Source: a bacterium | GTDB taxonomy: Bacteria > Patescibacteriota > Minisyncoccia > Phycocordibacterales > UBA6065 | Direction of reading: 5' to 3' | NCBI GenBank assembly: GCA_030680695.1 | Contig: JAUXUT010000149.1 | Coordinates: 302,933-354,999 of the forward strand | Length of the DNA: 52,067 nucleotides | Shown: positions 994 to 51,797 of the stretch, one piece after another | Layout: each line of letters opens with the position of its first letter | Position numbering within the stretch: position 1 is the stretch's first letter | Position numbers and translations under genes: made by a program | Notes under the pieces: generated by a model | Told to the model about the DNA's origin: nothing | Databases searched by the model: none | The model's input: the letters and a program-made list of their open reading frames with translations, nothing else

Positions 994-2475
994 TTACGCG
1001 CGCGGGCGCATCGTTGGGAAAAGAATCACCTCCTTGATGTTCTTTGTGCCGGTGAGAAGCATGGCTAGGCGATCCATGCCGATACCGACGCCTCCTGCGG
1101 GTGGCATGCCGTATTCGAGTGCCTCGACGAATTCAAGATCGTTTGGCTGGGCCTCCTTGTCCCCTTTCTTTGCATTGTCCTCTTCTTTTGAAAATCGTTC
1201 ACGCTGGTCTATTGGGTCATTCAATTCAGAAAACGCCTTTACGAGTTCCATGCCGCCGACGACAAGCTGAAACACATCAACGACTGATGGGTCTTTCTCG
1301 CTTTTCTTGGCAAGTGGGAGCATGTCCACTGGATAATCGGTGATGAAAGTTGGCTCGACGATGTTCACGCGAGATGCCTTCTTGTAAATATTGTCTACGA
1401 TGCGGTCTTTTGAATCGCCGTCTTCAACTTTGATGCCCATTTTCTTGGCCTTGGCTTCTGCAGTTGCGCGATCAACGGTGACTGGGTCGAAACCAGCGTC
1501 CTTTTGTACGAGGTCGCGGTATGAAATGCGATTGAATGGTTTTGAAAAATCTATGTCCCCTTCCTCGGATTTAACGACTGGCGAGTTGAGAACGGATTTA
1601 ACCACGTCACGAATCATCGCCTCGACGAAATCCATCTGCTTTGCGGCGGTGGAAAAAGCCTCGTAAAACTCGAGCATGGTGAACTCGGGGTTGTGGGTGA
1701 CGTCTATGCCTTCGTTACGGAAATTACGGCCGATTTCGTAGACCTTTGGGAAACCGCCGATAAGAAGCTTCTTTAGATACAGTTCAGGGGCGATGCGCAA
1801 AAAAAGATCTATATCAAGGGCATTGTGATGAGTCTTGAAAGGGGCCGCGTTGGTGCCACCTGCCAATGGTTGAAGCTGGGGTGTTTCCACCTCGAGATAT
1901 CCGGCCTTGTCTAGGACTGACCTGAACGCGGTAATCATGCGCGATCGAATCATAAATCGTTCGCGGACTTCGGCCGACATAAGGGTATCGAGGAAGCGGT
2001 TCCTGAATCGTTCTTCGACATCCTGAAGACCGCTCCATTTCTCGGGAAGTGGGCGCAAAGTTTTGGCGAGCATGGTCCACGATTTTACAAGAACACTGTT
2101 CTCGCCTTTCTGAGTGGTGAAAAGTTCGCCTTTAACCGAAATAATGTCGCCGATATCGGCAACGTCGGAAAACAGTTTAAACGAAGTCTCGTCCATGGAG
2201 TCCTTCTTGAACACGGCCTGAAAAGTTGAAGGACTGCCTTGCATGGTTCCGTCGAAAAGCGGCACGAAAAGTATGGCGCCTTGTCCACGCACCGCCATGA
2301 CGCGTCCAGCAAGGGCGACTTCTTTGCCAGTCTTCGCGAGTGTTTCGAAATCTGTCCTGACCGTGGCCAGGTCGAAATCATGTTCTGTCTCGATCGGATA
2401 CGGATTCATGCCCGCAGCCTTGAGGATGCCGAGCTTCTTTAGTCGTGCTTCTCGTATTTCGTCGAGTGATGCCAT
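994..2475 (-). CDS. lysS: Lysine--tRNA ligase (class II)
   Basis: OB-fold N-terminus (AGRVMAVR), LFLRIAPELYLK, FRNEG...HNPEFTMLEFY, YGMPPAGGVGIGMDRL. Confidence 0.98.
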   Translation of the reverse strand: MASLDEIREARLKKLGILKAAGMNPYPIETEHDFDLATVRTDFETLAKTGKEVALAGRVMAVRGQGAILFVPLFDGTMQGSPSTFQAVFKKDSMDETSFKLFSDVADIGDIISVKGELFTTQKGENSVLVKSWTMLAKTLRPLPEKWSGLQDVEERFRNRFLDTLMSAEVRERFMIRSRMITAFRSVLDKAGYLEVETPQLQPLAGGTNAAPFKTHHNALDIDLFLRIAPELYLKKLLIGGFPKVYEIGRNFRNEGIDVTHNPEFTMLEFYEAFSTAAKQMDFVEAMIRDVVKSVLNSPVVKSEEGDIDFSKPFNRISYRDLVQKDAGFDPVTVDRATAEAKAKKMGIKVEDGDSKDRIVDNIYKKASRVNIVEPTFITDYPVDMLPLAKKSEKDPSVVDVFQLVVGGMELVKAFSELNDPIDQRERFSKEEDNAKKGDKEAQPNDLEFVEALEYGMPPAGGVGIGMDRLAMLLTGTKNIKEVILFPTMRPRA

Positions 2476-6853: not shown

Positions 6854-8089
6854 CTACAGCGTTTTTATCGCCACCATCTTGACTTGTCCCGTCTTGCGGT
6901 CCTTCTCCTCGACAGAATCTTCGGCGAGCGTCTTCTCGGAAATAATGTATCGTGTTGGTATGCCAATAAGGTCCGAATCAGCGAACTTTTCACCCGCGCG
7001 CGCATCGCGATCGTCATAAAGAACTTCTATGCCTTTGGCGACGAGCTTTTCGTACAAAGCGTCTGCAGCCACTTTCACTTTGCCTGCCTTGTCGTCAAGG
7101 GCGATGAGATGCACAGCGAACGGCGCGACGGATTCTGGCCAGACGATACCTTTGTCGTCAGCAAGAGTCTCGACGATGGCGCCCATGACGCGACCGGGAC
7201 CAATGCCATACGATCCCATGACCACAGGTTTTGGCTTGCCATCTTCAGCAACATATGTGAGTTCGAAGGCATCAGAGAATCGCGTGCCAAGAGAAAATAT
7301 ATTTCCCACCTCGACGGCTTTTTTCTCGACGAGTTTGGATCGGTCGAGGCCGAGGTCCTTGAGCACCGCGTCGTCGAGAACTTCCTTGTTCACAGCGATT
7401 TTCTTTTCCTCGTCCACATAAATGAGATCTTCGCCGGCGTCCGTCACTGTCTGGAACTCGTGGGAAAATTTAGAAAACGAGCCACCAGTCGCAAACGTCA
7501 CATATGTCCTGTCGCCGAGGCCGAGCCTCTCGAAAACGCGCACATACGCCGCCTTGGCCTTTTCATAAAAATCAGCGTGCTCTGCCTCGTCTTTCGAAAA
7601 CGAGTAGAGATCCTTCATAAGAAATTCGCGGCCGCGCATGATGCCGGACTTTGCCCGTTCCTCGTTTCGGAACTTGGTCTGGAACTGGTACACCGCCGCA
7701 GGCAAATTGCGATACGAAGAAATGAAATCCTTCATGAGCGCGGTCAAAGGTTCTTCGTGCGTGAAGGCAAGACCAGCCTCGGAACCATTTCTGAGTTTTG
7801 TTTTGAACCAGTTGTCTACGACTGCGTCAGACCATCGTCCGGTTTTTTCCCAGGTCGCCTTGTCCTGAAGCGCGGTGAGCGAAACTTCCTGTCCGCCGAT
7901 GGCGTTCATTTCCTCGCGAATTACGTCGACGATTTTGTTCATGACGCGCAGGCCGAGAGGCAGATACGCATAAACGCCCGCCATCTCCTTGTATATGTAT
8001 CCGCCGCGAATCAGAAGCTGCGCATTTTTGGCGACTTCGTCTTTTGGGGCTTCTTTGCGGGTCTTGGTGAAAAGTTTGCTTTGGCGCAT
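6854..8089 (-). CDS. proS: Proline--tRNA ligase, short bacterial type without INS editing domain
   Basis: MRQSKLF...LPLGLRV, FQTKFRNEERAKSGIMRGREFLMKDLYSF, VEVGNIF-LG, MGSYGIGPGR; 411 aa. Confidence 0.96.
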   Translation of the reverse strand: MRQSKLFTKTRKEAPKDEVAKNAQLLIRGGYIYKEMAGVYAYLPLGLRVMNKIVDVIREEMNAIGGQEVSLTALQDKATWEKTGRWSDAVVDNWFKTKLRNGSEAGLAFTHEEPLTALMKDFISSYRNLPAAVYQFQTKFRNEERAKSGIMRGREFLMKDLYSFSKDEAEHADFYEKAKAAYVRVFERLGLGDRTYVTFATGGSFSKFSHEFQTVTDAGEDLIYVDEEKKIAVNKEVLDDAVLKDLGLDRSKLVEKKAVEVGNIFSLGTRFSDAFELTYVAEDGKPKPVVMGSYGIGPGRVMGAIVETLADDKGIVWPESVAPFAVHLIALDDKAGKVKVAADALYEKLVAKGIEVLYDDRDARAGEKFADSDLIGIPTRYIISEKTLAEDSVEEKDRKTGQVKMVAIKTL

Positions 8090-8166
8090 CGGGTTTTGTC
8101 GCGTAGACGTAAATTATGGCTTGGTTGCTCAATGATAGCCTATCTGGCCGTATTTGTAAGGGGGAC

Positions 8167-8240
8167 TTGCTTTTTTTAGTGAAAGGTGATATAATAGATA
8201 GAACAGCGTTAGTAAAGCCTCCCTTCCCGGGAGGTTTTTA
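8167..8240 (+). ncRNA. Candidate very short transcript: sigma70 promoter plus intrinsic terminator, divergent from proS
   Basis: TTGCTT(8167)-17 nt-TATAAT(8190); hairpin 8214-8238 whose G-U pair and T tract fit the + strand; no ORF follows. Confidence 0.4.
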
Positions 8241-8259
8241 TATACTCATTTTTCATTTG

Positions 8260-8295
8260 TGGAGTATTTGATGAAAAACGCATCAAATACTCCAT
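8260..8295. repeat. Inverted repeat, copy 1 of a dispersed 30-bp element
   Basis: TGGAGTATTTGATG-AAAAACG-CATCAAATACTCCA (14-bp arms); 28/30 identical to 40233-40262. Confidence 0.8.
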
Positions 8296-8355
8296 CATTC
8301 GAAAAAATCGAGAATGGACCCCCGCCCGCCGTGCCGTGCCGTGCGGCAGAAACCG

Positions 8356-9456
8356 CTATATAAGCTTCGCGATGTCTTTGTATGTCACAAAGAGCATAAA
8401 CAAGATGAGCAAGCCGAAGCCGAGAACATTGAGCGTGTTGGCAACGACCGGCTTGATTGGTCTCCTCGAGATAGCTTCGATGGCCACGAAAAGAATACGT
8501 CCTCCGTCGAGGGCCGGGAACGGAATGAGGTTGAGAACCGCCAAGTTCATGGATATGAAAGCCGTGAACGAAAGGAGATATATGAAGCCGAGCGAGCTGG
8601 CGTCGCCAACCAGACGCGCGATTCCGACAGGACCTGCAACTTGTGACAAATCGGCCTCGCCCATGAACGCATCCCTGATGAGTCCGTACAAATTCGCGGC
8701 GATGCCGACGAACATATCAACCGTGAGCTTGCCTCCTTCCCAGATTGCAAGGTGGATCGGCAGTTTGACCTTGCCGGCAAGGTCCATGGCAATGCCAATG
8801 GCAAAGTTCGACGTCGAAGAAACTTGTTCTGGCGTCACTGTGAGGGCGAGCGGCGCCCCGTTGCGCAATACTTCAAGGCCGAGCGCCGATCCGTCCGAAG
8901 AACGAACAGCACTTTGGACTTCCTCGACTGTGGCGACGACCGAAGTTGCGGCACTGCCAGATTTGATACCGATGAATGAGTCGCCAGGCATGATTCCGGC
9001 GCGCGCTGCAGGTGATCCCTCGAGAACTTCGATAACCATCACATGCTTGTCTATGACGTACTTGGAAGAATTATCCGAAACAGACGTGGTCATGCCCGAA
9101 AGATATGCGATGGAAAACAAGGCCCATGCGAATACGATGTTGAATATCACACCCGAAGCCAGGATGAGCGCCTGCTTCCATCGGGCGATATTTGAAAAAC
9201 TGCGTGGATCCTTGGCGCCGTTCGCCGCAGCCGGATCTTCATCTGGATTCTCGCCAAATATTTTTACGTATCCGCCGAATGGGATGAGGTTAAAAGAGTA
9301 CAGCGTCTCGCCCACTTTTTTCTTGAACAAGCGCGGCGGAAAACCGATAGCGAACTCGTCAACGCGCACGCCGAATCTCTTGGCTGCAAGAAAATGGCCG
9401 AGCTCGTGAACAAACACGAGGACCGAGAGGATAACGAGAAAAAGTATGACGGACAT
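8356..9456 (-). CDS. rseP: Intramembrane zinc metalloprotease RseP (M50, PDZ)
   Basis: HELGH, PFGGYV, PDZ segment (GSPAARAGIMPGD), NLIPFPALDGG. Confidence 0.96.
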   Translation of the reverse strand: MSVILFLVILSVLVFVHELGHFLAAKRFGVRVDEFAIGFPPRLFKKKVGETLYSFNLIPFGGYVKIFGENPDEDPAAANGAKDPRSFSNIARWKQALILASGVIFNIVFAWALFSIAYLSGMTTSVSDNSSKYVIDKHVMVIEVLEGSPAARAGIMPGDSFIGIKSGSAATSVVATVEEVQSAVRSSDGSALGLEVLRNGAPLALTVTPEQVSSTSNFAIGIAMDLAGKVKLPIHLAIWEGGKLTVDMFVGIAANLYGLIRDAFMGEADLSQVAGPVGIARLVGDASSLGFIYLLSFTAFISMNLAVLNLIPFPALDGGRILFVAIEAISRRPIKPVVANTLNVLGFGLLILFMLFVTYKDIAKLI

Positions 9457-44471: not shown

Positions 44472-44960
44472 CTAAACGCGAACTGGTTCGCCGATTCCTT
44501 CATCGTCTTTGTCGTCGGCACCACCGGACCATTCCGACTCTGCTGATCCTGTGCCACCGACTTGCTTGAGGAGCCCATCGTCTCGACGCTTGGATGATCG
44601 ATCCACTTGATCTATACGTCTATGGAGTCTATTGGCTTCGAACCTTATGGTGAAATCCAAACCACCCTTGACCTTGTTAATTTTATCGTTAAGCATATCG
44701 AAATTTTCGTCGACACGATTGTCGATACCGTTCAACCTGCTGTCTATCCCGTCAAACCGTTTATCCATTGAATCAAATCTCTTGTCTATCGCATCGAACC
44801 GTTTGTCTATCCCGTCAAACCTTTTGTCCATCGAATTAAATCTATCGCCTATCGCTTTGAATCTGTCACTGAACTCCCCGAAAGTCTCATTAAGAATCTC
44901 CCGCAGTATACTAACCGTAACAACGTCAGTTTCTTTCATCGCCATCATATGAATAAGCAT
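44472..44960 (-). CDS. Heptad-repeat coiled-coil protein (exact start uncertain, MLIH/MAMK)
   Basis: (DKRFDxI/M) repeated; 21-nt period at about 44708-44868. Confidence 0.75.
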   Translation of the reverse strand: MLIHMMAMKETDVVTVSILREILNETFGEFSDRFKAIGDRFNSMDKRFDGIDKRFDAIDKRFDSMDKRFDGIDSRLNGIDNRVDENFDMLNDKINKVKGGLDFTIRFEANRLHRRIDQVDRSSKRRDDGLLKQVGGTGSAESEWSGGADDKDDEGIGEPVRV

Positions 44961-45067: not shown

Positions 45068-45278
45068 TTTACAGGTCGCGGCGCATGTCGTATACTGGCC
45101 ATATCAGAGATTGCCTGGACCACCGATCCAGGGCGAGCCGAAAGGCTCGGCCGAGCCCAGCTCGCCTAATCTGAACAGAAGGTTAAACAGAGAGTTAGAA
45201 ATCTAGGTGGAACCGCGGCCGCCCGCCCTAGCAAGCACATGACGAAAGTCGTGCGCTCGCTAGGGCGCTTTAATTTTT
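45068..45278 (+). promoter_or_regulatory. Promoter and T-box riboswitch (transcription attenuator) upstream of thrS
   Basis: TTTACA-17-TATACT; AGGTGGAACCGCG T-box; antiterminator CUAGG-[UGGAACC]-GCGG/CCGC-CCUAG; competing terminator CGCCCUAGC/GCUAGGGCG plus TTTAATTTTT; ACC (Thr) at 45122-24. Confidence 0.85.
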
Positions 45279-45299: not shown

Positions 45300-47039
45300 A
45301 TGTCATCACTCGCAGAAAAACGTCACTCGTTCGCCCATCTCCTCGCCGCAGCCGTCGAGAAAATGTATCCAGGCACCAAAAACACCATCGGTCCGGCCAT
45401 CGACAACGGCTTCTATTATGACTTTGAATTCGCTCCGGATGCAAAGCCGTCAGATAAAGATTTCCTAAAAATTGAGAAAGAGATGCGAAAGCTTCTTCCC
45501 CACTGGAAAGGCTTCGAGAAAATGGTCGTCACAGCCGAAGAGGCCCGCGCGCGATTCGCAGGCAATCCTTACAAACTTGAACTTATCGAGGAAATCGCAA
45601 ACAAAGGCGAGGAAATAACTCTGTATAAGTCAGGTGATTTTATTGACCTTTGCCGCGGTGGTCATGCAGAACCAAAAGACATGGACCCAACATCGTTCAA
45701 GCTTGACCGCATCGCTGGTGCATATTGGCGCGGCGACGAATCCAAGTCGATGCTCACCCGAATCTATGGCTTGGCTTTCGAAACAAAATCTGATCTCGAC
45801 GCATACGAGGCGCAAATCGCGGAAGCCAAGAAACGAGACCACAAAATCCTCGGCCCCGCCCTCGACCTCTTCACCTTCTCGGACCTCGTAGGCGCCGGAC
45901 TTCCCCTTTGGACACCGAAGGGCACAATCGTCCGCAACCTCCTCGATCAATTCGTTTGGTCACTACGTTCAATGCGAGAATACGAGCGCGTCGAAATCCC
46001 ACACATCACCAAGAAAGATCTGTACATAAAATCCGGCCATTGGGAAAAATATCAAAACGACCTGTTCAAGATAAAGACCCGCGAAGGTCATGAATTCGCC
46101 ATGAAGCCGATGAACTGTCCGCACCACACTCAGATATATGACCGCAAACAATGGAGTTACCGTGAATTACCACAGCGATATGCGAATACGACCACGTGTT
46201 ACCGCGACGAGCAGACTGGCGAACTTTCCGGCCTTTCTCGTGTGCGCGCCTTCGCCCAAGACGACGCCCATGTTTTCTGCCGTATGCAGGATGTGAAGGC
46301 TGAATTCCTAAAAATCTGGGATATCGTGCACGAATTTTATCCAGCGTTCGGCCTCGACCTCAAGGTGCGCTTCTCTCATCGTGATCCATCCACTCCAGAC
46401 AAATACCTCGGCGACGCGTCGCGATGGGATGTTGCAGAAGGCTTCCTCAAGGAAATCATTGACGAGAAAAAAGCAGAGTTCATGGACGGCCCTGGCGAAG
46501 CAGCATTTTACGGCCCAAAGCTCGACTTCATGGCCAAGGATTCCATCGGACGAGAATGGCAAGTGGCGACAATACAACTCGACATGGTCATGCCTGAACG
46601 CTTCGGCCTCACTTGTGTAAACGAGAAAGGCGAGAAAGAAGGCATCGTTATGATTCACGCCGCAATCATGGGATCAATCGAACGCTTCCTGTCGCTCCTT
46701 ATCGAACATACTGGTGGCGCCTTCCCTCTCTGGCTCTCGCCAGTGCAGGTCAAAGTCGTGCCTGTGCGAGAAACGAATGAGGCCGCGGCGAGCGCCGCAG
46801 GCAAAGTCCTCGCCGCGGCCGGCCTGCGCGTAGACACAGACCTCGGCCCAGCAGGATTTGGCAAGAAAGTGCGCGAGGCAAAAGATATGAAGGTGCCATA
46901 CACCGTCATCATCGGCGACAAAGATATGGAAAAAGGTGTCGTCACCCTAGAGTCTCGCGATAAGGGCAAGGTTGGCGAGTTCCCAATCGAAGAAGTTGCG
47001 GACATGCTCGCAAAAGAATCGGCATCGAAGGCCAGATAG
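45300..47039 (+). CDS. thrS: Threonine--tRNA ligase (no N-terminal TGS domain)
   Basis: HSFAHLLA, DLCRGGH, KRDHK, KPMNCPHH, YRDEQTGELSGLSRVR, AFYGPK, GSIERF. Confidence 0.98.
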   Translation: MSSLAEKRHSFAHLLAAAVEKMYPGTKNTIGPAIDNGFYYDFEFAPDAKPSDKDFLKIEKEMRKLLPHWKGFEKMVVTAEEARARFAGNPYKLELIEEIANKGEEITLYKSGDFIDLCRGGHAEPKDMDPTSFKLDRIAGAYWRGDESKSMLTRIYGLAFETKSDLDAYEAQIAEAKKRDHKILGPALDLFTFSDLVGAGLPLWTPKGTIVRNLLDQFVWSLRSMREYERVEIPHITKKDLYIKSGHWEKYQNDLFKIKTREGHEFAMKPMNCPHHTQIYDRKQWSYRELPQRYANTTTCYRDEQTGELSGLSRVRAFAQDDAHVFCRMQDVKAEFLKIWDIVHEFYPAFGLDLKVRFSHRDPSTPDKYLGDASRWDVAEGFLKEIIDEKKAEFMDGPGEAAFYGPKLDFMAKDSIGREWQVATIQLDMVMPERFGLTCVNEKGEKEGIVMIHAAIMGSIERFLSLLIEHTGGAFPLWLSPVQVKVVPVRETNEAAASAAGKVLAAAGLRVDTDLGPAGFGKKVREAKDMKVPYTVIIGDKDMEKGVVTLESRDKGKVGEFPIEEVADMLAKESASKAR

Positions 47040-47834: not shown

Positions 47835-49898
47835 TTATACGTCGATTGTCGCCTTGTGGGCATTCGACTGGATGAAGGCCTTCCTCGACGGCACATCTGT
47901 ACCCATAAGCATGTCGAATATCTTGTCGGCGTCCTGGGCGTCTTCGATGGTGACGCGTTTTAGCATGCGGCGAGCAGGATCCATGGTCGTTTCCCAGAGT
48001 TCGTCGGCGTTCATTTCTCCGAGACCCTTGTATCGTTGAACGTGGGTCTTGACGGTCTTCTTGCCCTTCCCTGCCGCTTCTTCTTCGGCTTCTTCTTGAG
48101 CCTCGGCTGCCTCGTCAATTGGCTCTTCGGATTCGAGAGGAATCTCGTCCTTGCCTAACACCTTGGTTTTCTCGTCCTCAGTGTAGAAATACATGACTTC
48201 CTTGCCGCGCTTGACCTTGTACAGTGGTGGCTGGGCGATGTAAATATATCCGCCGTCTATGATTGGCTTGAAGTATCGATAAAGCAGAGTAAGGATGAGG
48301 GTGCGGATGTGGGCGCCGTCGACGTCTGCGTCGGTCGCGATGATTACCTTGTGATATCGGAGTTTCGAGAGATCGAAAGTCTCACCTATCGCCGTGCCCA
48401 TGGCGACGACGAGATTTTTAATCTGTTCAGATGCAAGCATACGATCGAGGCGAGCACGTTCAATGTTGAGAATCTTTCCTCGCAATGGAAGAACGGCCTG
48501 GGTTTTTCGGTTGCGTCCGGTTTTGGCGGTACCACCTGCAGAGTCTCCCTCTACGATGAAGACTTCGGATTCAGATGCGTCGGACGATTCACAGTCGGCA
48601 AGCTTGCCTGGGAGCGTCATGCCTTCGAGTGCACCCTTGCGCAAGATCGAATCCTTGGCGGCCTTGGCGGCCTTGCGAGCCTTCATGGCGAGGATGGCCT
48701 TGTTGATCATGGCCTTGGCATCGTCTGGGTTTTCCTCGAGGAAAGCCTGGAAAGCCTCGCCGAAGACGGTCGCGACCGCACCTTGTGCCTCGACCGATCC
48801 GAGCTTGGCCTTGGTCTGGCCTTCGAACTGGATTTCGCGAAGCTTTACGGATATAACCGCGGTGAGACCTTCGAGCACGTCATCGCCTGTGAATGTGTCG
48901 TCTTCCTTGCCGTTGCCGTTCTTTTTGGCGTACGAGTTGAGCGTCCTGGTAAGCGCGGTTTTGAAACCGGTAACATGAGTTCCGCCCTCGTTGTTATAGA
49001 TGTTGTTTGCAAATGGCAGGATGCGAGAAGAAATGTCGTCTACATACTGGAGAGCGACTTCGACGGATTCCACGCCTTCGGCCTTTTTCTCGATATAGAA
49101 AATGTTCTTGTGAACTGGCTTCTGGATCGAGTTTGTAAAGCGCACGAGGCTGATGAGACCACCTTCGAAATAGAAGCTTTCCGAAGGAACATCGAGTCCG
49201 AGTTCACGGAAATAGAAAACATCATCGGTATCAATCGAGCCTTTGTATTCGCGAGCGTCTATGACTGATATGCGCAAGCCACGAACAAGATATGCCTGTT
49301 GGCGCATATGGTTGACGATGCGCTTGAAATCGAATACCTGTTGGCCGAATATCGCCGTGTCAGGCTGGAAAGTGATTATGGTTCCGTGATCTTTGGACGG
49401 GCCGATTTTTTTGACGGAAGCTTTTTTCTTGCCTTGAGAATATTCCTGAACGTATTTGCCGCCGTCGCGATGGACTTCGGCTTTGGTGTATATGGAAAGC
49501 GCGTTCACGACCGATGCGCCCACGCCGTGGAGACCGCCAGATACCTTGTATCCGGAATCTTCGCCACCGAACTTGCCTCCAGCATGGAGAACAGTCATGA
49601 CGACTTCGAGCGCTGACTGTTTGGTCTTCGGATGGACGTCAACAGGGATACCGCGACCGTTGTCGGTCACTCGCACAATCTCACCTGGCATGAAAGTTAT
49701 CTCGATATCGTCAGCGTGGCCGCCCATGGCCTCGTCACGCGAGTTGTCGAAAATTTCGGTAATAAGGTGATGGAAGCCGTCGGGACCAGTGGTTCCGATG
49801 TACATTCCAGGGCGCTTGCGCACAGGTTCGAGACCTTCTAGAACTTGGATGGATTCTGCTCCATATGAACCTTTTTTCACCTTCTCTTCCTTGGCCAT
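47835..49898 (-). CDS. gyrB: DNA gyrase subunit B (start MAKEEK at 49898)
   Basis: LEPVRKRPGMYIG, DNGRGIP, GGLHGVGASVVNALS, VEGDSAGG, TDADVDG, QRYKGLGEMN. Confidence 0.97.
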   Translation of the reverse strand: MAKEEKVKKGSYGAESIQVLEGLEPVRKRPGMYIGTTGPDGFHHLITEIFDNSRDEAMGGHADDIEITFMPGEIVRVTDNGRGIPVDVHPKTKQSALEVVMTVLHAGGKFGGEDSGYKVSGGLHGVGASVVNALSIYTKAEVHRDGGKYVQEYSQGKKKASVKKIGPSKDHGTIITFQPDTAIFGQQVFDFKRIVNHMRQQAYLVRGLRISVIDAREYKGSIDTDDVFYFRELGLDVPSESFYFEGGLISLVRFTNSIQKPVHKNIFYIEKKAEGVESVEVALQYVDDISSRILPFANNIYNNEGGTHVTGFKTALTRTLNSYAKKNGNGKEDDTFTGDDVLEGLTAVISVKLREIQFEGQTKAKLGSVEAQGAVATVFGEAFQAFLEENPDDAKAMINKAILAMKARKAAKAAKDSILRKGALEGMTLPGKLADCESSDASESEVFIVEGDSAGGTAKTGRNRKTQAVLPLRGKILNIERARLDRMLASEQIKNLVVAMGTAIGETFDLSKLRYHKVIIATDADVDGAHIRTLILTLLYRYFKPIIDGGYIYIAQPPLYKVKRGKEVMYFYTEDEKTKVLGKDEIPLESEEPIDEAAEAQEEAEEEAAGKGKKTVKTHVQRYKGLGEMNADELWETTMDPARRMLKRVTIEDAQDADKIFDMLMGTDVPSRKAFIQSNAHKATIDV

Positions 49899-51662: not shown

Positions 51663-51692
51663 AACTGACGAAAAACGTAAATCGAGTAGAGA

Positions 51693-51715
51693 AAAATCCC
51701 CGTCATGGGGATTTT
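51693..51715. terminator. Bidirectional terminator
   Basis: AAAATCCCC-GTCAT-GGGGATTTT. Confidence 0.75.
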
Positions 51716-51724
51716 CCGTATCTG

Positions 51725-51797
51725 AGCCACCCCCCGGGCTTGAACCGGGCACCTACTGTTTACAAAACAGTTGCTCTACCAGATGAGCTAGGGTGGC
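51725..51797 (-). tRNA. tRNA-Thr(TGT)
   Basis: Acceptor GCCACCC/GGGTGGC, anticodon loop TT-TGT-AA, GTTCAAG T arm; discriminator U73; CCA not encoded. Confidence 0.96.

Follow-up and report, generated by a model that had tools for sequence, protein, structure and literature searches.

An apparently undescribed T-box architecture in the thrS leader of Patescibacteria

We analyzed the leader of thrS, the gene encoding threonine–tRNA ligase, in a 52,067-nucleotide stretch of a Patescibacteria genome (GenBank assembly GCA_030680695.1, contig JAUXUT010000149.1, positions 302,933 to 354,999 of the forward strand; this whole stretch is called the window below, and positions are counted from its first letter). 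The leader runs from promoter to terminator at positions 45103-45278, between a divergent open reading frame (ORF) and thrS, and, judging from its sequence and that of its relatives, it is very probably a working, transcription-attenuating T-box riboswitch for tRNA-Thr. In this leader a complete T-box antiterminator, mutually exclusive with an intrinsic terminator, is preceded by a 6-bp Stem I hairpin that carries the threonine codon ACC in its apical loop and that lies almost directly downstream of the promoter. We conclude that the element is a real T-box, and apparently an architectural variant of the T-box that has not been described.

Antiterminator, terminator and mode of control

The T-box sequence AGGUGGAACCGCGG lies at 45205-45218, within an antiterminator (45203-45231) that consists of the 5-bp helix A1 (CUAGG/CCUAG, 45203-45207 with 45227-45231), the 7-nt T-box bulge UGGAACC (45208-45214), the 4-bp helix A2 (GCGG/CCGC, 45215-45218 with 45223-45226), and the loop CCGC. 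It is followed by an intrinsic terminator (45224-45278), with an 18-bp interrupted stem at 45224-45267, a GAAA loop, and then C-UUUAAUUUUU. The 5′ strand of the terminator (45224-45231) reuses the 3′ strands of A2 and A1, so that the two states are mutually exclusive. The antiterminator alone has a predicted energy of −8.4 kcal/mol. Since the terminator state lies about 24 kcal/mol below that of the antiterminator, termination is the default outcome. Folding of the whole leader gives a z-score of −5.0, and 0 of 200 shuffled sequences fold as well. A first-pass annotation of the window, made by a model from the sequence alone, had described an antiterminator of 5-bp and 4-bp helices around UGGAACC, exclusive with a terminator upstream of thrS, and our analysis places these elements at the same positions and demonstrates that they covary in relatives.

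The terminator and its U-tract are present in every core relative (see below), the thrS start codon is 21 nt downstream of the U-tract, and inspection of the leader revealed no Shine-Dalgarno sequence within its helices. These observations support transcriptional control, as annotated, rather than control by Shine-Dalgarno sequestration. Two further pairings can be drawn in this part of the leader. The freed 3′ half of the terminator, at 45254-45267, can form a 5-bp hairpin (CGCUC-GCUA-GGGCG) directly before the U-tract, the bases of which are left unpaired in most relatives. In addition, positions CCACC 45120-45124 of the Stem I loop are exactly complementary to GGUGG 45206-45210 in the T-box/A1 region, and the CUACC found in relatives would pair with the same region using one G·U pair. 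Such intramolecular pairing could compete with the tRNA, or the complementarity may merely reflect the fact that ACC is the complement of the GGU found inside the T-box consensus.

Relatives of the leader

A protein search with ThrS returned 76 loci in species-representative genomes and a further 80 in metagenomes, and the close ThrS loci are all located in metagenome-assembled genomes (MAGs) of Patescibacteria, also known as the candidate phyla radiation (CPR), in agreement with the CPR lineage proposed in the first-pass annotation. By our own count, about 20 of the 69 genome loci whose upstream sequence was long enough have GGUGGAACC ahead of thrS, as do additional metagenome loci, and these amount to about 28 distinct T-box thrS leaders once duplicates are counted a single time. 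From these we assembled a core set of 13 leaders, including that of the window, and a set of 16 leaders for Stem I, with ThrS proteins 60–82% identical. All 13 core leaders share one layout: a −10 box, a helix that we name P1, the strand GAUYG, a 6-bp stem with the loop CUACCAA, one or more variable arms, the strand CC-Y-A-A, and the 3′ strand of P1, followed by a linker, AAU, A1, UGGAACC, A2, and the terminator. Other relatives have simpler leaders, with a 4-5-bp hairpin bearing the loop CCACCAA, ACUAACCAA or ACUCACCAA, and then an A-rich linker, Stem III, and the antiterminator.

In a MAFFT alignment of the 13 whole leaders, 96.2% of the cells in P1, Stem I, A1, and A2 taken together are paired, compared with 75.6% in shuffled alignments, and 16 of 20 pairs change on both sides, a result reached by 0 of 500 shuffles, with controls in which the partner strand was slid giving at most 44%. 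In A1, 4 of 5 pairs covary, and the UGGAACC bulge is invariant. Stem I and the terminator also emerge independently from RNAalifold, which shows compensatory changes at most of their pairs.

A covariance model built from the 13 core leaders (R1) identified 13 further leaders outside the training set, with scores of 14-47 bits, all upstream of thrS and on the sense strand, and found no second site in the 52-kb window. By comparison, a search of the window with Rfam at gathering thresholds reports only three tRNAs. With permissive settings the only plausible Rfam match to the leader is RF00230, the search proposed in the first-pass annotation, which reaches 18.5 bits (E = 0.048) where the gathering score is 93; the alignment fits well in the T-box/antiterminator region and contains a 75-nt deletion in Stem I. 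The 14 related leaders that we scored with RF00230 reach at most 45.4 bits.

Several of the related loci depart from the common pattern. For example, the leader L044:1160-1302 has the loop CGUAACGAU, with a possible ACG specifier, L133:555-624 is without a clear ACC loop, and L095:455-641 carries a 62-nt insertion at the position of Stem III. In L054, at about 1259-1310, there are two candidate hairpins, one of which (with CUACCAA) lies inside a likely promoter spacer. One MAG (MFD04780.bin.2.113) contains two thrS copies (L040 and L048), 74-78% identical to the window gene, and in neither was a T-box found by motif or by model R1, which shows that the element is patchy even among close relatives.

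Stem I, the specifier and the promoter

Stem I (45114-45132) is a 6-bp stem formed by CCUGGA (45114-45119) and UCCAGG (45127-45132), which closes the 7-nt apical loop CCACCGA (45120-45126). The covariation analysis of CPR thrS leaders proposed in the first-pass annotation shows that 6 of 6 pairs of this stem change on both sides in a gap-free MAFFT alignment of the 16 hairpins. In this alignment 95.8% of the cells are paired, compared with 62.6% in shuffles (0 of 500 as high) and 26–50% with a slid partner strand. Within the loop, A-C-C and the A two positions later are invariant in all 16 leaders, and the base following ACC is always a purine. The consensus of the family is CUACCAA, to which C-C-ACC-G-A of the window corresponds; the loop is 7 nt long in the core leaders, and some relatives have a loop of 9 nt. 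The annotation was thus right to place ACC in a 7-nt apical loop on a 6-bp hairpin, but this is not the only ACC upstream of the T-box as it had claimed, with a second located at 45119-45121, straddling stem and loop. It is the position of ACC in the homologues that fixes the specifier at 45122-45124. The invariant ACC, together with the identity of the downstream gene (TIGR00418, see below), bears out the specificity for threonine that had been assigned.

Upstream of the leader is a sigma-70-type promoter (TTTACA-17 nt-TATACT, 45068-45096 on the forward strand) that matches at 10 of 12 positions, and since it ends at 45096, transcription is expected to start at about 45103. The promoter ends 7 nt upstream of P1, leaving only 100 nt between the inferred start and A1. 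This arrangement is general: in 13 of 13 core leaders a −10 hexamer (TAnnnT) ends 6-12 nt before P1, and several also have a TTGAC-like −35 element. Because the promoter directly adjoins the structure, a long Stem I could not be accommodated. A canonical long Stem I, which would carry an AG bulge and, distally, the double T-loop for the tRNA elbow, was considered, and the position of the promoter rules it out. The ultrashort Stem I of the first-pass annotation therefore holds, and the competing fit that it had itself named, a canonical Stem I, is not borne out.

The P1-closed junction, the variable arms and Stem III

Helix P1, which was overlooked in the first-pass annotation, pairs UCAGA (45104-45108) with UCUGA (45170-45174) and closes Stem I and the variable arms into a 3- or 4-way junction. 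All five of its pairs change on both sides, with 93.8% of cells paired across the 13 leaders; for example, UCAGA/UCUGA is replaced by CUCGA/UCGAG (L018 and L049), by AGGA/UCCU (L003), and by GCUGA/UUAGC among the relatives. The two inner pairs are less well tested because they are nearly invariant. An alternative helix between GAUU (45109-45112) and AAUC (45168-45171) was rejected, since it overlaps P1, and P1 covaries.

Inside P1, the junction is formed by the strand GAUUG (45109-45113, family consensus GAUYG), of which the G, A, U, and final G are invariant in the 13 leaders, and by UAA (45167-45169), which with the preceding CC gives the consensus CC-Y-A-A and of which both A residues are invariant. 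Inspection of these consensus strands did not find a K-turn, with its 3-nt bulge and tandem G·A/A·G pairs, and when every register of AGAGAUUG against CCUAAUCUGA was tried, none gave a bulge and tandem G·A beside the covarying pairs. The Y positions of the two strands (45112 and 45167 in the window) change together in the 13-leader alignment, being U/U in 10 leaders, C/C in L018 and L031, and U/A in L033, and the two C/C leaders differ from each other in P1 sequence. This co-change hints at a non-Watson-Crick contact in the junction.

The G+C-rich segment between Stem I and the second junction strand (45133-45166) differs in length and shape in every relative. In the window it resembles a near-duplicated hairpin, CGAGCC-GAAA-GGCUCG followed by CGAGC-CCA-GCUCG, and it can fold either as two hairpins (45134-45149, with the GAAA loop, and 45149-45166) or as a single 11-bp arm with a 5×2 internal loop. 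These folds are nearly isoenergetic (−18.6 vs −17.7 kcal/mol) and give a 4-way or a 3-way junction, respectively. The GAAA-capped stem pointed out in the first-pass annotation is present at 45134-45149, but it is not kept in relatives, in which the segment contains a 3-bp hairpin after 7 unpaired bases, a 10-12-bp hairpin, or both. The 13 aligned leaders share no Stem II, S-turn, or F-box consensus, and no elbow platform or Stem II pseudoknot was recognized in the window leader.

Between P1 and the antiterminator is a purine-rich linker of 28 nt (45175-45202), which contains at most a vestigial Stem III, also overlooked in the first-pass annotation. It comprises no more than four weak A-U/G·U pairs (UUAA 45183-45186 with UUAG 45195-45198), flanked by GAAGG and AAAU where the canonical flanks are 5′-RRRxG and AA-3′. 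The Rfam alignment marks non-standard pairs in this region, and the minimum free energy fold does not form the stem. The nearest relatives (L001, L002, L045, and L078) have the same Stem III of at most four weak pairs, and 8 core relatives have a real Stem III of about 4-9 bp by eye, with flanks RRAGCG and AAU.

The tRNA-Thr partner

The window contains one tRNA-Thr gene, at 51725-51797 on the reverse strand, with U73 and no encoded CCA. The variable base of the T-box bulge is A, complementary to a U73 discriminator, and the gene shows U73 on tRNA-Thr in this organism; the corresponding prediction in the first-pass annotation is correct as far as the discriminator is concerned. The anticodon of this gene, which the annotation overlooked, is however UGU and not the GGU that matches ACC, and since UGU mismatches the C of ACC, this tRNA is not the isoacceptor for the specifier. 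A pattern scan of the species genomes identified U73 in 5 of 5 Patescibacteria tRNA-Thr(GGU) genes. About 10 nt after the window gene, at 51690-51724 on the reverse strand, is a hairpin (AAAAUCCCC-AUGAC-GGGGAUUUU) that runs into UUCU and is terminator-like.

Gene context

The divergent ORF upstream of the leader encodes 162 aa (44472-44960, reverse strand). thrS itself, at 45300-47039 on the forward strand, encodes 579 aa and is identified by the TIGR00418 equivalog model, which it matches at 611.5 bits (cut-off 383.65). Its product contains the class II core as well as the anticodon-binding domain; Pfam finds no TGS domain, and the protein seems to begin at the editing-domain region. This short form of ThrS is common to the CPR relatives, all of which align from residues 1-8.

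Among the aminoacyl-tRNA synthetase genes that we examined in the window, thrS is the only one that bears a T-box. Two other T-box-like sequences were dismissed as chance matches, GGUGGUACC at 48537 on the reverse strand, inside gyrB, and GGUGGCACC at 1861 on the reverse strand, inside lysS. The lysS gene (994-2475, reverse strand) follows greA and has no leader. The gap of 267 nt upstream of proS (about 6854-8089, reverse strand; gap 8089-8356) contains a promoter-like site and two hairpins, of which one resembles a terminator; no T-box motif was found in it.

Discussion

We propose the following mechanism for this leader. Transcription would start at about 45103, and the first 72 nt would fold as the P1-closed junction. 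One arm of the junction, the 6-bp hairpin, would present ACC on the 3′ side of its 7-nt loop, followed by a purine and A, for pairing with the anticodon of uncharged tRNA-Thr(GGU), and the free 3′-UCCA end of the same tRNA would pair with UGGA of the T-box bulge. Both contacts would together hold the weak antiterminator until RNA polymerase has passed the U-tract, and thrS would be transcribed, while a charged tRNA, with its 3′ end unable to dock, would leave the more stable terminator to form. The tRNA would apparently be held by these two base-pairing contacts only. In this scheme we infer the binding of tRNA, the choice of isoacceptor, the discrimination between charged and uncharged tRNA, and the lack of a hidden third contact. 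As C-U-ACC-A-A has the size and the flanks of an anticodon loop, the codon–anticodon contact would plausibly be a loop–loop decoding complex with two G-C pairs. Two tRNAs with complementary anticodons form such loop–loop complexes, in which two 7-nt loops join through three stacked pairs with a useful affinity and no other contacts. An ACC specifier also fits the “C rule” of T-boxes (PMC7583486).

Four classes of T-box have been defined (PMC10482949): class I, transcriptional, with a long Stem I and Stem II; class II, the transcriptional glyQS type, with a long Stem I and no Stem II; class III, the translational ileS type, with a short Stem I, an apical specifier loop of 5-6 nt, and a requirement for Stem II; and class IV, translational, with an intermediate Stem I. 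In these, tRNA binding is reinforced by a double T-loop, an S-turn, or both (PMC10482949), and transcriptional T-boxes generally need a long Stem I for kinetic reasons (PMC7583486). In the papers that we searched, all the apical specifiers described belong to translational ileS T-boxes with a requirement for Stem II, for example those of Nocardia farcinica, Mycobacterium tuberculosis, and M. smegmatis (PMC7583486, PMC10482949), which agrees with the statement in the first-pass annotation that ultrashort Stem I elements with an apical specifier are known from translational ileS T-boxes of Actinobacteria.

The leader resembles class III in its short Stem I without an elbow-binding double T-loop, its apical specifier, and its bulge and A1/A2 core. 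It differs in having a loop of 7 nt rather than 5-6 nt, an intrinsic terminator rather than Shine-Dalgarno sequestration, and a Stem I placed inside a P1-closed junction; in serving Thr and thrS in Patescibacteria rather than Ile and ileS in Actinobacteria; and in having no recognizable K-turn, Stem II S-turn, or IIA/B pseudoknot, all of which class III contains. With class II glyQS, as in Bacillus subtilis and Geobacillus kaustophilus, it shares transcription attenuation, the apparent lack of a Stem II domain, a single-stranded linker joining the decoding and discriminator domains, and a G+C-rich codon–anticodon pairing (GGC:GCC in glyQS and ACC:GGU here). It lacks the long Stem I, K-turn, internal specifier loop, and distal double T-loop on the tRNA elbow that are found in glyQS, which also keeps Stem III. 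Finally, class I T-boxes of RF00230, such as those of B. subtilis thrS and tyrS, provide the same gene and amino acid, the same T-box sequence and antiterminator/terminator logic, and a C-ending specifier, and the leader differs from them in the roughly 75 nt of Stem I absent in the Rfam alignment, in having no recognizable Stem II or IIA/B, and in its sub-threshold RF00230 score. The leader thus apparently joins the apical specifier of class III to the terminator and linker of class II, with neither of the two reinforcements, and a P1-closed junction is part of none of the four classes.

We lean, if only slightly, towards regarding these leaders as a fifth class of T-box in Patescibacteria, a transcriptional class that presents its codon in an anticodon-loop-like 7-nt loop, on a short hairpin within a P1-closed junction, and that would hold the tRNA by the codon–anticodon and UGGN-NCCA contacts only. 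Such a class would do without an elbow platform, a K-turn, or Stem II and, in the subclade of the window, without a real Stem III.

A number of observations weigh against the mechanism proposed above. Stem III is vestigial here, although it is described as indispensable to T-boxes of the canonical kind; A2 has G45215-C45226 as its basal pair in place of the canonical G·U (among the core leaders it is G-C in 9 of 13, G·U in 3, and another pair in 1); and the residual hairpin at 45254-45267 may leak some termination in the ON state. Complexes between tRNAs have U-turns at U33 and modified bases, whereas the window loop has C at the position equivalent to U33. The only tRNA-Thr gene in the window has the anticodon UGU, not the GGU that ACC needs. 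Furthermore, the same pattern scan found U73 in 104 of 111 tRNA-Thr(GGU) genes outside the CPR, and since U73 is so common in bacterial tRNA-Thr(GGU), the discriminator match is weak evidence, consistent with the proposed partner and not discriminating. The stretch was found in three runs, from groundwater metagenomes, and only DNA runs match. As for the design itself, reviews report that a Stem I in truncated form hardly binds tRNA when Stem II is missing, and that contact with the elbow is required for transcriptional T-boxes to bind fast enough (PMC7583486, PMC10482949); the two-contact design is therefore tentative.

The main rival reading is that this T-box is not truly minimal, with the arms at 45133-45166 or the junction purines (GA of GAUYG and AA of CYAA) acting as a cryptic substitute for Stem II that would dock on the codon–anticodon helix, for three contacts much as in class III. 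We consider this unlikely, though far from negligible. The window arm can form the 11-bp helix with its purine-containing 5×2 internal loop at nearly equal energy, many relatives have an A-rich loop (GAAA, AAA, AAAU, or CAAAA) on a small hairpin just before CYAA, Rfam loosely aligns the hairpins of L018 to the Stem II and IIA positions of the model, and the junction purines are invariant. Nevertheless, relatives differ in how many arms they have, in the length of the arm stems (about 3 to 12 bp), and in the sequence of the loops, with no conserved S-turn or F-box consensus, and two leaders (L130 and L032) make do with the specifier hairpin and an A-rich linker. By simple geometry, the junction purines, 6 bp below the loop, should not reach it.

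That the leader is instead a decaying T-box remnant, unresponsive to tRNA and with a terminator acting as a constitutive brake on thrS, appears very improbable to us. The vestigial Stem III, the G-C basal pair of A2, and the residual hairpin next to the U-tract speak for such a remnant, and the presence of the element at only about 20 of 69 related genome loci indicates that it has clearly been lost often. In the leaders that carry it, however, ACC, UGGAACC, and the junction strands are invariant, and every helix shows compensatory changes over 13–16 diverged leaders, which amounts to purifying selection on the whole switch. The form without a real Stem III is moreover common to L001, L002, L045, and L078, and, being shared by these nearest relatives, is maintained. 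Slighter still is the probability that the hairpin is a protein operator or that the switch controls translation. In Escherichia coli, ThrRS autoregulates thrS by binding hairpins of the thrS leader that resemble anticodon arms, and the hairpin here likewise has an anticodon-arm-like 7-nt loop; yet this loop bears the codon ACC, whereas ThrRS reads the anticodon GGU or UGU, and an operator would leave the complete T-box bulge and antiterminator unexplained. Translational control is countered by the conserved terminator and U-tract, by the distance from the U-tract to the start codon, and by the lack of a visible Shine-Dalgarno sequence in the helices.

Our literature search found no paper linking a T-box with Patescibacteria, CPR, Parcubacteria, or Saccharibacteria. 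The group as a whole is missed by RF00230, which would amount to a blind spot in annotation if the leader works as proposed. In the TBDB database, the class II (translational) model was run only on Actinobacteria and on sequences that RF00230, the class I model of TBDB, had already picked up (PMC7778990), and because the translational model is so restricted, TBDB would probably miss these leaders as well. If the leaders are indeed a fifth class, elements that have been called essential for transcriptional T-boxes would be dispensable, at least in slow-growing cells with tiny genomes. If functional, the leader would be a natural test of how small an RNA can be and still recognize both which tRNA it meets and whether that tRNA is charged. 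It would likewise be a compact part for engineering, with about 130 nt between the start of P1 and the end of the antiterminator, and it would mean that CPR bacteria, with their reduced genomes and their reliance on imported amino acids, still regulate an aminoacyl-tRNA synthetase by the charging of its tRNA.
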